Shown piece after piece: positions 26,526 through 30,482 of a DNA stretch of 32,000 bases (position 1 is its first letter; each line of letters begins with the position of its first letter). The translations under genes were made by a program, and so were the position numbers. The notes under the pieces were generated by a model. That model saw only the letters and a list, made by a program, of their open reading frames with translations. It ran no database searches and had not been told where the DNA came from. Source of the DNA: Candidatus Methanoperedens sp. (GTDB taxonomy: Archaea > Halobacteriota > Methanosarcinia > Methanosarcinales > Methanoperedenaceae); the NCBI GenBank assembly GCA_041494705.1, contig JBGQBI010000001.1:120001-152000 (forward strand), read 5' to 3'.

Positions 26526-26555
26526 AAAAAGCACACCTTGCAGCAAGCTGCGGGG
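26526..26555 (-). terminator. candidate operon-end terminator (weak hairpin plus T5 on the minus strand)
   Basis: CCTTGCAGCAAGCTGCGGGG (26536-26555) is palindromic around GCAG/CTGC. On the minus-strand RNA the outer pairs are C-A mismatches, so the stem is weak. A T5 run follows (complement of 26526-26530), about 35 nt past the stop of the flavoenzyme gene. Confidence 0.3.
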
Positions 26556-26563
26556 TATTCAAT

Positions 26564-27787
26564 TTAAAGCAAATGTTGTACTTGCTCCGCTGCTTTTTTT
26601 CCAGAGGATATGGCGGCTGACATCCCATATGGCATGAGATGGTGGCTATCCACATGAGTATAGTCACCCGCTAAAAAAACGCGCTGTGACGGAAGTATTT
26701 TTTCTATAGCCCAGGCACCATAACTTTCCTCCGAAATAATCGGGCTAATCATGTCCCAATGATGATGGTCGGCAAATTTTATTTGTTCCTCCCTAAAGTT
26801 GCCAAAACCCAAAGCATCAAGAGTTTGCAACGCCATTTTCACCATTTCTTTTGCATGCAATTTACGCACAGGTACGGATTTAATTCCCATGAAGTAAAAG
26901 TATAACAATACCAGACCATCAACAGCCGTTTTCTGCTGCACAACGGTACTGGTAGCAAGATCCGGGGTAGCAATGTACGAAAACTCAGGAATTAGGTTTT
27001 CCGGTATTGCTAAAACGCACAGGCTTCCTGTGCCGTAACGAATTCCATCCAAAAAAAGTCTGCTGGGGCTTTCTGCACGGGCGATAACGCGAGATGCTTC
27101 ATGGGCTGGTATCGAGCAAATAACGGCCTTTGCAGAAAGGTGCTTAATTTGCCCCCCTTCATTGACAGTAACAACAACATTTCGTCCTTGATCATCGATA
27201 CTAAGTACCTGCACCCCGCAACGAAGCCGCGATGATATACCTTCAATCAAGCCAGCAATCAACGCTCCATTGCCGGTTTCATAATGTCCCATCTGAAATA
27301 CTTGAAAGGCATCAAGCCTCCTTTGAGGAATATATTCACCTATCTCACCAGGGTGAATCAACTGAAAAAAAGCATTTAACAACTCGTACGATGGCGGCGA
27401 AAGGTCGAATATATCATATGCGCCTCCATTGACAAAAGCAGTAATCTCTTCGATCTCAAGGTTTCGAAAATCAATTTTTTCAAGACAATCCACAACACTT
27501 TTGCCAAACCAGGTGCGTCCTTTCGAACAGACTCCAATCATGCCATATTCTTCGATTAGTGGTGGTGGAGCGATTCCGGTCGGCAAGGATGTCGGTTCAA
27601 TAGCAAAAACTGCTCCGATTTCATAGCTTACTCCCATTTTCTCACGGGTAAGCACGCGCCCTCCGGCATTCGTTTTTAGTTCAAGCACGATAATGTCTTT
27701 ATCACGCAATGCGTATGCCGCGTAAAGCCCGGCCAGTCCGGCGCCGACAACTATTACCTCCTTGCATTCGTCTTGAAATCTTTCCAT
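26564..27787 (-). CDS. flavin-containing amine-oxidase-family oxidoreductase (last gene of the RiPP-like operon)
   Basis: 407 aa. The N-terminal dinucleotide-binding motif VIVVGAGLAGLYAAYAL is followed by ELKTNAGGRV, and the C-terminal VFLAGDYTH motif is typical of the amine oxidase/PPOX/phytoene desaturase superfamily. Confidence 0.8.
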   Translation of the reverse strand: MERFQDECKEVIVVGAGLAGLYAAYALRDKDIIVLELKTNAGGRVLTREKMGVSYEIGAVFAIEPTSLPTGIAPPPLIEEYGMIGVCSKGRTWFGKSVVDCLEKIDFRNLEIEEITAFVNGGAYDIFDLSPPSYELLNAFFQLIHPGEIGEYIPQRRLDAFQVFQMGHYETGNGALIAGLIEGISSRLRCGVQVLSIDDQGRNVVVTVNEGGQIKHLSAKAVICSIPAHEASRVIARAESPSRLFLDGIRYGTGSLCVLAIPENLIPEFSYIATPDLATSTVVQQKTAVDGLVLLYFYFMGIKSVPVRKLHAKEMVKMALQTLDALGFGNFREEQIKFADHHHWDMISPIISEESYGAWAIEKILPSQRVFLAGDYTHVDSHHLMPYGMSAAISSGKKAAEQVQHLL

Positions 27788-27798
27788 TTGATCCCTTG

Positions 27799-28617
27799 CT
27801 AATAATACAAATTAAATGTGTGATATTCACCCGCATTGATATCATCAATATCCATGGCAATAATAATTTTGGTTGATCCTATGGCAGAAAAGGCAGTTGA
27901 AAGCTGTTTGGATCCTATTTTAGCTATAAAGTCGGAAGCATCGTAAGGAATCATATGTGCCGAAACGCCAGCTTTATCTGTGGAAAAGCAAAAACTGACT
28001 CGGTGGCAACACTCTGCTAACATTGTCACTTTTTCTCCAACTATATCTCGCAGCAGTGCGTTCTGTTCGCGAATCTCATAATCGTGCATAACAGGATAGA
28101 CCTTTAAAGCCGACGCTCCGGAAAATACGAAATCAAACCCGAAAAGGAATCCCTTGTGAACCTTAAGGCGACGAGCATTGGGTGAAATACCTGCAAAGCC
28201 AAGAGCGCGTGTTTCCATAGCCGGGTAATCTCCCACAATGTGCCACAGTTTGATTCTCGATGAGGCAATATCCGGTCTCAGGTCTATACCGACTACGTTA
28301 TAACGCACTTTTTCGTATAGAAAATCTGTTCCTGTTACCTCATGATACAGTGAACGATATATAGGAGCCATTTCAGCATAATGCCCTAAAAAGGCAACTA
28401 TTTTAGGATTAAGACTGAATCCTCCACTATTCTTGTACCAAAGGTTAAACCGCAATGGATGCACGGTGTCGCCACATACTTTACAGGAGCATTCCAAATG
28501 AGCTTCGGGCGAAGCCCTCAATAAATCCAGAAATGGAACGCAAAGCGGTGTTGCTTTGGATGCAAAGGATGTCAAGTGCCTGCGGTATTTTTCTATTTGC
28601 ACATTGGATGATTGCAT
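27799..28617 (-). CDS. ABBA (PT-barrel) peptide prenyltransferase-like protein, cyanobactin LynF/TruF/PagF-type motifs
   Basis: 272 aa. Five spaced beta-hairpin-like repeats are visible: LECSCKV...RFNLWY; VGIDLRPDIASSRIKLWHI(VGDYP); FGFDFVFSGASALKVYPV; VSFCFSTDKAGVSAHMIPY; IIAMDIDDINAGEYHTFNLYY (C-terminus). The blocks SCK...RF.L, GIDLR...SS.K, DYP, GFDF.F.G and a terminal LYY resemble cyanobactin prenyltransferases as I remember them. No search was run. Confidence 0.5.
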   Translation of the reverse strand: MQSSNVQIEKYRRHLTSFASKATPLCVPFLDLLRASPEAHLECSCKVCGDTVHPLRFNLWYKNSGGFSLNPKIVAFLGHYAEMAPIYRSLYHEVTGTDFLYEKVRYNVVGIDLRPDIASSRIKLWHIVGDYPAMETRALGFAGISPNARRLKVHKGFLFGFDFVFSGASALKVYPVMHDYEIREQNALLRDIVGEKVTMLAECCHRVSFCFSTDKAGVSAHMIPYDASDFIAKIGSKQLSTAFSAIGSTKIIIAMDIDDINAGEYHTFNLYY

Positions 28618-28638
28618 GACTAAAGAATTATCCTTTTA

Positions 28639-30209: not shown

Positions 30210-30225
30210 AGGGGACGTAGACTGC

Positions 30226-30405
30226 TTACCAATGCCAACCGTTTGCACATGATGAACACTCTTCTACAATGGCCTTATGGGCTGCTGCTACGGCATCCTT
30301 CAAATCCTTCGCATCAACCGTCACATTCTTTGCCTTCAGTGCTTTTTGAAGGGCAGAAATTCCCTTTTCCGTATTGGCCTTTTCAGAAATTTTCGCTTCA
30401 CTCAT
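30226..30405 (-). CDS. RiPP precursor peptide candidate (59 aa), C-terminal core ...EECSSCANGWHW
   Basis: The ORF track gives a 69-aa form from TTG 30435. The ATG at 30403-30405 has a strong GGAGGTG 7 nt upstream and gives MSEAKISEKANTEKGISALQKALKAKNVTVDAKDLKDAVAAAHKAIVEECSSCANGWHW. It lies 153 nt upstream of, and on the same strand as, the radical SAM/SPASM gene. Confidence 0.7.
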   Translation of the reverse strand: MSEAKISEKANTEKGISALQKALKAKNVTVDAKDLKDAVAAAHKAIVEECSSCANGWHW

Positions 30406-30420
30406 AGTTGTCACCTCCTT

Positions 30421-30440
30421 AAACATTGAATGCAATGTTT
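30421..30440 (-). promoter_or_regulatory. 20-bp palindrome abutting the precursor RBS (operator or 5'-UTR hairpin)
   Basis: AAACATTG aatg CAATGTTT: perfect 8-bp arms with a 4-nt spacer, between the candidate TATA box and the Shine-Dalgarno sequence. Confidence 0.4.
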
Positions 30441-30474
30441 ATAATATTTCTACCATCATAATTAAGATGTGCAC

Positions 30475-30482
30475 TATATAAA
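30475..30482 (-). promoter_or_regulatory. candidate TATA box for the precursor/RiPP operon
   Basis: The minus strand reads TTTATATA, a perfect archaeal TATA consensus, about 70 nt upstream of the ATG at 30405. It predicts a 5' UTR of roughly 45 nt containing the palindrome and the SD. Confidence 0.35.

Follow-up and report, generated by a model that had tools for sequence, protein, structure and literature searches.

The described systems closest to the locus considered here are those in which a peptide that is ribosomally synthesised and then post-translationally modified (RiPP) receives an isoprenoid. ABBA-type prenylation has been published for cyanobactins, lanthipeptides, lasso peptides and proteusins, and maturases that fuse a prenyltransferase (PT) to a cyclase have been published as well (PMC13290415 and PMC12715784). 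With NctPC, from Hubrich et al. 2024 (Chem 10:3224) as summarised in PMC13290415, a RiPP Trp is modified by an ABBA-fold PT of low similarity to the cyanobactin PTs, after which a monodomain (MstE-like) terpene cyclase produces a polycyclic isoprenoid (PMC13290415). MppC, also an ABBA PT, geranylates a lanthipeptide Trp in a leader-dependent manner and on the already cyclised peptide (PMC12715784), and PalQ is selective for a C-terminal Trp (PMC10853753). The locus compared with them here is a group of four genes in 32,000 nucleotides (nt) of DNA from Candidatus Methanoperedens sp. (GCA_041494705.1, contig JBGQBI010000001.1, positions 120,001-152,000 of the forward strand), the whole of that stretch being called the window below. 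The genes encode a 59-amino-acid (aa) precursor peptide, a radical S-adenosylmethionine (rSAM)/SPASM enzyme, a homologue of the cyanobactin F-type PTs and a flavoenzyme, and very probably constitute a peptide-maturation cassette. A preliminary description of this DNA, made from the sequence alone, had assigned the four products to these families, and all four assignments were reproduced by hidden Markov model (HMM), PDB or structure-model evidence.

All four genes are co-directional on the minus strand, downstream of a TTTATATA box, as seen from the open reading frame (ORF) listing and a reading of the sequence. The intergenic gaps are 153 nt between precursor and rSAM gene, 21 nt between rSAM and PT gene and 11 nt between PT and oxidase gene, the same values, and the same gene order, as first described. 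The consensus TATA box that had been placed upstream is the TTTATATA at 30475-30482; the octamer is enriched in the window (six copies found, 1.17 expected from shuffles), and this copy presumably acts as the operon promoter. Coordinates within the window are as follows.

26517..30696, minus strand: whole cassette, its borders set by nucleotide homology (blastn) to other Methanoperedens genomes
30646-30653, upstream of the precursor: second copy of TTTATATA
30475..30482, minus strand: TTTATATA box, a candidate for the operon's archaeal TATA element, 69 nt 5' of the precursor ATG
30411..30420, minus strand: Shine-Dalgarno-like AAGGAGGTGA, 5 nt ahead of the precursor ATG (sequence reading)
30226..30405, minus strand: precursor peptide gene, 59 aa, its ATG at 30405 inside an ORF of 30226-30435
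30229..30258, minus strand: predicted core CSSCANGWHW, residues 50-59 (conservation, synonymous codon changes)
30073..30225, minus strand: spacer between precursor and rSAM gene, with T-runs (TTTTGTTT, CGTTTT) and AGGAG ahead of the rSAM ATG
28639..30072, minus strand: rSAM/SPASM peptide maturase, 477 aa, with an N-terminal domain like a RiPP recognition element (RRE) (Pfam, NCBIfam, AlphaFold2 (AF2), Foldseek)
29758..30072, minus strand: RRE-like domain of the rSAM enzyme, residues ~1-105 (DSSP on the AF2 model)
28663..28971, minus strand: SPASM domain of the rSAM enzyme, residues ~368-470 (PF13186 and invariant Cys)
27799..28617, minus strand: F-family (cyanobactin-type, ABBA-fold) PT homologue, 272 aa (PF19156, PDB phmmer)
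27816..28396, minus strand: mosaic segment of the PT gene, about residues 75-267 (nucleotide alignment breaks and aa identity drops here)
26564..27787, minus strand: amine-oxidase-fold oxidoreductase dependent on flavin adenine dinucleotide (FAD), 407 aa (PF01593 and PF13450, AF2, Foldseek)

It may be speculated that the T-runs of the spacer serve in partial termination. A short TTG-start ORF (MEFNVDKQIKDYWDNKNNIARIEQYFN, ~30491-30571, minus strand) lies between both TTTATATA boxes, within the region conserved in the related locus L012.

The literature searched describes no rSAM/SPASM-initiated prenylated RiPP, no core motif C-x-x-C-A-N-G-W-H-W, no amine-oxidase-fold tailoring enzyme in a prenylated-RiPP pathway, no comparable cassette in archaea and no prenylated or rSAM-cross-linked archaeal peptide natural product; it also yielded no relevant paper for Methanoperedens RiPPs, for DUF5838, or for the PDB names DciF, SmiF, FjoF, OcyF and Fl3F. 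The earlier view that no described RiPP class has this enzyme combination thus holds within that literature, with the restriction that ABBA-type prenylation of a RiPP Trp, with or without terpene cyclisation, is already published for NctPC and MppC. The enzyme families are familiar, as is the RiPP logic, and no new principle is involved; novelty lies in the combination, in the core and in the host. The core matches none of the named motifs considered (KxxxW, WGK, NxxC, SCIFF and others), and to our knowledge few archaeal RiPPs have been characterised, haloarchaeal lanthipeptides being the main case.

The precursor (MSEAKISEKANTEKGISALQKALKAKNVTVDAKDLKDAVAAAHKAIVEECSSCANGWHW, 59 aa) has its two Cys (50 and 53) and its two Trp (57 and 59) all within the final 10 residues, as had been pointed out. 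Homologous small ORFs are found upstream of every related rSAM gene, and a precursor HMM matched only such small ORFs, at 1e-12 to 2e-29; the leader GISALQKALKAKNV.VD... is conserved among these precursors, and one genome (L020) has two of them in tandem. Within the Methanoperedens clade C50, C53, A54, N55, G56, W57, H58 and W59 are invariant, the last seven residues being fixed as C-A-N-G-W-H-W, and the core ends ...CANGWHW even in L057, whose enzymes are 42-57% identical to those of the window. The codons of the core vary synonymously between genomes (TGT/TGC, GCA/GCT/GCG, AAC/AAT, GGT/GGC/GGA/GGG, CAT/CAC) around fixed residues, which shows purifying selection on the peptide core. Conservation of the small ORF beside rSAM homologues was a check named in the preliminary description, and it recurs in at least 10 Methanoperedens-like genomes or contigs. 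Because synteny and precursor recur across genomes and the core codons vary synonymously, the comparison of sequences shows the small ORF to be a real gene. Across the wider family only the L024 precursor departs from the conserved C, C, N, G and C-terminal W. Of the Gly-Trp-His-Trp tail first stressed, the C-terminal Trp therefore retains its weight in the wider family, and the first Trp, which is not conserved there, does not.

The gene order precursor-rSAM-PT-oxidase is constant in L001-L005, L012-L020 and L057, wherever the contig is long enough; a second proposed check, synteny of the 272-aa and 407-aa genes with the small ORF, was borne out in each of the Methanoperedens-type loci recovered. 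For all three enzymes the nearest homologues carry the label Candidatus Methanoperedens or Methanosarcinales. In blastn comparisons L012 aligns at 97.5% over window positions 26517-30696 only, and L013, L003, L015 and L016 over similar spans. The cassette flanks gave no alignment to other Methanoperedens loci, though each of these carries several kb of flank, and the flanking genes differ per genome (Ccm genes; AAT/UbiA/PurL; AspRS/ThiF). Judging from these alignments, the 4.2-kb cassette shows the behaviour of a mobile module and occupies differing genomic contexts. With flanks that vary from genome to genome, the related loci have no protease, exporter or immunity gene as a conserved neighbour of the cassette, which extends to those loci what had been seen in the window.

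The 477-aa protein passes the Pfam models Radical_SAM PF04055 (56 bits, cut-off 29.5) and SPASM PF13186 (40.3 bits, cut-off 21.5, residues 370-436), and the NCBIfam SPASM model TIGR04085 (31.9 bits, cut-off 27). The CxxxCxxC motif and complete SPASM Cys pattern reported at first are reflected in three and seven invariant Cys in an alignment of 20 homologues: C137-x3-C141-x2-C144 for the radical SAM motif, and C370, C388, C432, C435, C441, C448 and C466 for the SPASM domain, in the layout C370-x12-G383-x4-C388 ... C432-x2-C435-x5-C441-x6-C448 ... C466, where the last-pair spacing is x6 in the window enzyme as opposed to the usual x3. An N-terminal motif, VLSP.EA...PLFDG.NT..EIK, is invariant in the same 20 homologues. 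The PqqD/RRE Pfam model had zero matches in these 20 proteins, the window enzyme included, even at E ≤ 5. The AF2 model is confident (predicted local distance difference test score, pLDDT, of 91.8 overall and ~90 in the N-terminal region), and DSSP assigns it strands at 10-12, 15-19, 24-28 and 36-38, followed by helices at 41-49, 56-66 and 72-86. Foldseek aligned the model over its full length to SuiB (5v1t, E 3.5e-20, 481 columns), with SkfB (6efn) and CteB (5wgg) as next matches and anSME also aligned. The N-terminal domain is considered RRE-like because of this strand-then-three-helix order and the full-length alignment to SuiB and CteB, both of which have an N-terminal RRE. The RRE-rSAM-SPASM architecture is well supported, its RRE part by the structure model only; the PqqD-like domain that had been claimed appears as an RRE-like order of strands and helices in the AF2 model, not as a PqqD Pfam match.

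The enzyme appears to have the same three-domain architecture as SuiB/StrB (streptide), the thioether formers CteB and AlbA, and SkfB, with a precursor encoded immediately upstream as in those systems, but it is only 15-18% identical to them and is coupled to prenylation genes. It passes no NCBIfam equivalog model, the best being MftC, GeoRSP, AlbA, WgkB and PqqE, all far under cut-off. Scores for the sactipeptide and ranthipeptide maturases were 49.8 bits for AlbA (cut-off 850), 29.1 for SkfB (300), 31.3 for StsB (625) and 26 for SCIFF (425), and since no equivalog model is passed the type of cross-link is a guess. Thioether-type chemistry is proposed because Cys-rich precursors adjoin distant members of the rSAM clade (Brocadia, Peptococcaceae, Aminicenantes, Zixibacteria), one of which, the L031 precursor ...CSSCPNGCPTDCASGCLEGC..., has a near-identical core start (CSSCPNGC, compared with CSSCANGW in the window). 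Cys-rich precursors upstream of rSAMs of 26-42% identity were seen at L025, L031, L041, L042 and L044 (e.g., ...CSSCPNGCPTDCASGCLEGCIPGGK and ...CDRGCALDCKDGCIDECKDTRKG), probably multi-thioether peptides, which have a C-x3-C periodicity. At L029 (Anaerobacterium, P0069) no W-type precursor was found.

That MftC is the best NCBIfam match of the rSAM enzyme, with PqqE also among the matches, raises another reading, in which the cassette follows the logic of mycofactocin or pyrroloquinoline quinone (PQQ). The C-terminal unit would be modified at the rSAM step, for example by oxidative decarboxylation of the terminal Trp or by its cross-linking, then prenylated, oxidised by the flavoenzyme and excised by an unlinked peptidase, leaving inside the cell a redox molecule that is a prenylated indole or quinone-like. 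The small precursor with a critical C-terminus at whose extreme end all invariant residues lie, the putatively RRE-dependent rSAM/SPASM enzyme and the absence of a linked exporter, immunity gene or protease are consistent with it, and the flavin oxidase following an rSAM step parallels MftD as generally known from mycofactocin biosynthesis. We nevertheless regard this reading, including its example of an rSAM step, as unlikely. The matches reach only 58 bits of the 265 demanded for MftC and 45.9 of the 381 for PqqE, the window holds no homologues of MftB, MftD, MftE or MftF nor any cassette peptidase or companion gene, the oxidase fold is unlike MftD, and the sister cassettes described below carry terpene cyclases, as secondary-metabolite RiPPs do. 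The distribution of the cassette, considered with the PT gene, also counts against it.

The 272-aa protein passes Pfam DUF5838 (PF19156, the LynF/TruF/PatF family) with 66.2 bits (cut-off 28.8), and in a PDB phmmer search its residues 27-272 align to residues 34-287 of 8ye0 at E 4.9e-22, with SmiF, FjoF, Fl3F, LimF, DciF, PagF and PirF as further matches. Near-full-length homology to solved ABBA-fold F-PTs at this E-value implies the five-fold beta-hairpin repeat that had been read from the sequence. Twelve residues common to five solved F-PTs (E42, S44, K46, R56, D112, R114, R121, K123, D162, Y174, Y271 and Y272) are present, and the shared residues are invariant in 14 archaeal-type PT homologues, including both of the mosaic alleles described below. 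Because these residues are intact the protein looks catalytically competent. At the putative donor-gating position, placed by LimF alignment and a rough numbering offset to AgcF Cys218 and PagF Phe222, the window PT has Ser208/Cys210 and the other allele Asn/Gly, small residues that hint weakly at a C10 or longer donor.

As to subfamily, the NCBIfam LynF/TruF/PatF model TIGR04445 gives 72.5 bits, under its cut-off of 140, whereas the nearest non-archaeal relatives (P0148-P0150, P0152 and P0157) pass it at 143-288 bits. Cyanobactin context (PatA/PatG-type proteases, macrocyclisation, an E-type precursor) is absent from the window and from every related locus. The protein described at first as a cyanobactin-type PT is thus a member of the F-family by fold, on the strength of DUF5838 and the PDB homology, yet the cassette is no cyanobactin pathway. 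The likeness to the cyanobactin F-PTs (PagF, PirF, LimF, KgpF, AgcF/AutF, LynF/TruF) extends over nearly the full length and to the shared residues, but here there is no N-C macrocyclisation, the host is an archaeon, and the likely substrate would be a leader-bearing, rSAM-cross-linked linear peptide. The sub-threshold score, together with the existence of an inactive family member, PatF, could also mean a protein without catalytic function, a relic or scaffold of the PatF kind, and a product that is cross-linked and oxidised without being prenylated. This is very unlikely: E42, K46, R56, D112, R114, K123, D162, Y174 and Y271/Y272 are invariant in all 14 homologues of both alleles, D112 and K123 match by offset what we take to be the positions substituted in PatF, and the PT gene is kept in every Methanoperedens-type cassette.

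Most of ten long DUF5838 proteins scanned are fusions (the hits include P0152, P0157, P0160, P0208, P0233, P0159, P0226, P0195 and P0260), with an N-terminal HxsC-like rSAM without SPASM, an O-methyltransferase and rSAM, an FAD_binding_4 oxidase or methyltransferases as partners. We know of no description of rSAM-F-PT fusions. Those such as P0152 were considered as a link to the window system and rejected, their rSAM part being HxsC-like, without SPASM and unrelated to the window rSAM.

The PT gene is, by alignment, a two-allele mosaic within otherwise conserved cassettes. Nucleotide alignment of the window to L001, L019, L020 and L002 breaks within the gene, at 27816-28396, and over PT residues 76-265 the two allele types are only ~42% identical at the aa level, as divergent as the distant L057 cassette; in L001, L019 and L020, by comparison, rSAM and oxidase are 88-92% identical to those of the window, and identity over PT residues 1-75 is 75-92%. 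Such a pattern points to recombinational replacement, and to diversifying selection acting on the enzyme that would install the lipid. The mosaic and the mobile cassette therefore favour an accessory, interaction-related product over a core cofactor, and the rarity of the transferase homologues (22 clusters among 5.8 billion proteins) and the variable position of the cassette likewise amount to accessory behaviour, contrary to what the mycofactocin or PQQ logic would lead one to expect. The product would be an accessory, strain-variable lipopeptide (a signal, antagonist or membrane-associated factor).

Two PT alleles in cassettes otherwise so similar could also be read as 'pherotypes' with different lipids, the product being a secreted, prenylated C-terminal-Trp peptide of the ComX kind. 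The mosaic resembles the Bacillus comQXP polymorphism. Prenyl transfer to a C-terminal or nearly C-terminal Trp, which is predicted for the window, is the chemistry of ComX/ComQ and PalX/PalQ (PMC10853753, PMC13290415) and is likewise a point of resemblance to MppC. A ComX-like pheromone is nonetheless quite improbable, in that linked genes for a receptor kinase, an exporter or a processing protease are absent, the core of the peptide shows no co-variation with PT type, ComQ and PalQ have a different, trans-IDS-like fold, not ABBA, and an rSAM enzyme with a flavoenzyme is foreign to ComX systems. MppC in turn differs in having LanM, not an rSAM enzyme, as its partner, and neither it nor ComQ/PalQ is accompanied by an amine-oxidase-fold flavoenzyme.

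The 407-aa protein passes Pfam Amino_oxidase (PF01593, 72.9 bits, cut-off 19.8) and also matches NAD_binding_8 (PF13450, 35.8 bits). Its AF2 model (pLDDT 91.2) resembles monoamine oxidase (MAO), L-amino-acid oxidase (LAAO) and protoporphyrinogen oxidase (PPOX) with TMq 0.73-0.82, the Foldseek matches being LAAO 7eme, MAO-A 2bxr/2z5x (TMq 0.8) and PPOX 2ive, all at ~1e-22. A GxGxxG dinucleotide fold and an amine-oxidase substrate domain are both present, so that the last gene does encode a GxGxxG flavoenzyme, as described. It meets no functional subfamily cut-off (HpnE 49.2 bits of 283, PPOX 41.6 of 97.85, crtI_fam 23 of 238, PigB 33.5 of 850), and no substrate was inferred from the structure search, MAO, LAAO and PPOX being matched equally.

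The oxidase forms a small clade of its own (46 clusters), whose members repeatedly link it to peptide or indole pathways with prenylated substrates. P0137 and P0140 are fusions to an SQHop_cyclase_C domain, and P0137 (JGI 3300056388) stands directly after a class II lanthipeptide synthetase (LanM), with small ORFs that are candidate precursors upstream and a C39-peptidase ABC exporter downstream; no recognisable PT was found on the P0137 contig. P0139 (JGI 3300047160), a relative of 31% identity, shares a cluster with genes for a DMATS-type Trp prenyltransferase, a UbiA protein, two IspG-like proteins, IspH and an FAD_binding_3 monooxygenase; the cluster probably encodes a prenylated-indole pathway that supplies its own precursors. 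On account of the cyclase fusions, the Trp-PT neighbour and the exchange of cyclase for oxidase between the branches of the family, it is proposed that the flavoenzyme tailors the prenyl-Trp unit. Two further neighbourhoods were rejected: P0140 (L058) does not lie beside the PT P0013 but has a phosphoenolpyruvate-utilising enzyme and an Asp/Asn beta-hydroxylase fragment as neighbours, and the 282-aa protein upstream of the relative P0142 is not PT-like by HMMs. In one Methanoperedens-type genome the next gene after the oxidase, on the same strand, encodes a UbiA-family prenyltransferase (L001 10151-11023 = L017 9605-10477); none of the other loci shows it, and its presence may be a coincidence.

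The rSAM clade reaches beyond Methanoperedens (77 clusters, and 43 loci in a scan of one genome per species), and rSAMs 42-47% identical to that of the window are preceded by homologous precursors, with the following cores.

L006/L007, Methanosarcina thermophila-type contigs: CEQCANGARW
L022, Methanosarcina sp. T3: CDQCSNGMRW
L023 and L021, two Peptococcaceae metagenome-assembled genomes: CDQCTNGAHW and CDQCANGARW, respectively
L010/L011, metagenome contigs: CQQCANGWHW
L024, Methanosarcina sp. Z-7115: deviant C-terminus ...CHDICITEGSKW

L024 aside, the family core motif is C-x-x-C-[A/T/S]-N-G-x-[H/R]-W-stop with an invariant C-terminal Trp, and precursor lengths are 54-69 aa; in the sister family A, M or S stands in place of W57, and R or K in place of H58. 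In these sister cassettes gene 2 encodes a 281-293-aa protein without Pfam match and gene 3 a 333-411-aa squalene-cyclase-like protein (TIGR01787, 62 bits), and those of L010/L011 have two rSAMs. Pairwise BLASTP between the 272-aa PT and the 281-293-aa protein gave nothing, a PDB profile search with the 281-293-aa family gave nothing either, and a shallow profile-profile comparison reached a probability of 1.9%. A 120-sequence F-PT profile, on the other hand, matched the family in hhalign at 88.5% probability (E 2.7e-6, 162 columns) with the E-x-S-x-K, R and G-x-D motifs in register, and an F-PT HMM matched the L024 sister protein directly at 8e-5. The 281-293-aa protein is thus, on profile evidence, a remote homologue of the ABBA-type F-PTs, and because of these matches both branches appear to pair the rSAM enzyme with an ABBA-type transferase. 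The branches differ in the third enzyme, which is terpene-cyclase-like in the sisters (L006-L011 and L021-L023) and a flavoenzyme in Methanoperedens; neither the window nor any Methanoperedens-type locus gave a match to a cyclase HMM.

With a remote ABBA-PT homologue beside a monodomain squalene-cyclase-like protein, the sister cassettes look like the published PT-cyclase (NctPC) maturases in unfused form, and they may already be catalogued in the primary NctPC study. A tie of the window cassette to NctPC is that relatives of its oxidase (P0137 and P0140) are fused to such cyclase domains. The cassette differs in lacking a cyclase, in having an ordinary F-type PT, a flavoenzyme and, as its predicted first and leader-dependent maturase, an RRE-rSAM/SPASM enzyme, in its short precursors, which are not of the proteusin, Nif11 or lasso type, and in its archaeal host.

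Taken together, these comparisons suggest a specific scheme of cross-linking, prenylation and oxidation, which we consider reasonably likely and which bears out most of the preliminary reading. As sequence and conservation show, the 59-aa precursor has a conserved leader and, as substrate region, the C-terminal decapeptide C-x-x-C-A-N-G-W-H-W. Judging from the fold, the RRE-like domain of the rSAM/SPASM enzyme would bind the leader, and the enzyme, using a 5'-deoxyadenosyl radical and two auxiliary Fe-S clusters, may introduce one or two intramolecular cross-links into the core. These would lie within C50-W59, and by analogy with the distant relatives thioethers from C50 and C53 are, more tentatively, the most probable. 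The F-type PT would then move an isoprenoid from a prenyl diphosphate to a side chain of the core, the invariant Trp59 being the likeliest acceptor, with NctPC, MppC and PalQ as precedents, and W57 and H58 the alternatives, and the flavoenzyme, in the place held by the squalene-cyclase-like terpene cyclase in the Methanosarcina and Peptococcaceae sister cassettes, may oxidise (dehydrogenate) either the prenyl-indole unit or a C-N or C-C bond next to it. If the leader is removed and the product exported, unlinked functions would serve for this.

Several points weigh against this scheme. What the data establish is the conservation of the genes and the peptide; every chemical step is inferred. 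SuiB, the best structural match of an rSAM enzyme that passes no equivalog model, forms a Lys-Trp C-C bond and not a thioether. The PT score falls under the TIGR04445 cut-off, and at least one member of the F-family, PatF, is catalytically dead; as W57 and H58 are replaced in the sister family, the identity of the acceptor may differ between the two types of transferase. The modelled oxidase is equally near to MAO, LAAO and PPOX, amine-oxidase-fold enzymes usually require a free amine, a polyene or a porphyrinogen, and the host is an anaerobe, a difficulty as regards the electron acceptor of such an oxidase. The protease and exporter, finally, would have to be unlinked.

A broader interpretation would make the product the first prenylated, rSAM-cross-linked ribosomal peptide from an archaeon and the cassettes an unrecognised cross-domain RiPP family with the core C-x-x-C-x-N-G-x-x-W, in which the isoprenoid on the terminal Trp is cyclised in bacteria and Methanosarcina or flavin-oxidised in Methanoperedens, the PT mosaic reflecting diversifying selection on the lipid and hence strain-specific signalling or antagonism among anaerobic methane oxidisers. 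As a whole this is speculative and held to be rather doubtful. Candidatus Methanoperedens grows in consortia and oxidises methane anaerobically in a nitrate- and metal-dependent way, and a strain-variable, mobile lipopeptide cassette would, if real, offer a handle on cell-cell interaction or competition in methane-oxidising communities. For enzymology, the locus would provide an rSAM/SPASM enzyme predicted to act on a very short invariant core, an F-type PT that probably works on a leader-bearing cross-linked peptide and has two natural, highly divergent alleles to compare, and a small new clade of flavoenzymes with the amine-oxidase fold, seen repeatedly alongside prenyltransferases and terpene-cyclase domains. 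Through the core that they share, the window cassette is tied to bacterial and Methanosarcina cassettes that resemble, in unfused form, the recently described peptide-terpenoid hybrid pathways.

The surroundings of the cassette in the window are chromosomal housekeeping genes: aspartyl-tRNA synthetase (AspRS), SMC, carbon monoxide dehydrogenase/acetyl-CoA synthase (CODH/ACS), a mevalonate-pathway operon, ThiF and TusA. The mevalonate-pathway operon (10473-15659, minus strand) lies 11-16 kb from the cassette and comprises the following genes.

14760-15659, minus strand: GHMP (mevalonate) kinase
13996-14763, minus strand: isopentenyl-phosphate-kinase-like AA_kinase
12855-13961, minus strand: FMN-dependent IDI2-like protein
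11478-12824, minus strand: RNase J
10473-11435, minus strand: polyprenyl synthase

The operon supplies prenyl donors, but a functional linkage of it to the cassette was rejected, as the two are not syntenic elsewhere; prenyl diphosphates are available in any archaeon. Genes for a ThiF/MoeB-type E1-like protein and a TusA sulfur carrier (30792-31830, plus strand) are divergent and immediately upstream of the cassette, and were rejected as partners because they are not conserved beside it elsewhere. A 455-aa eCIS_core (extracellular contractile injection system core) protein is encoded at 16922-18289 (plus strand), in a region with a G+C content of 0.54-0.57 at 17-19 kb compared with ~0.45 for the window. 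Between the oxidase and AspRS genes there is a 114-aa ORF (26143-26487, minus strand) without Pfam match, parts of whose region align to L012, L013 and L015 just past the oxidase stop.

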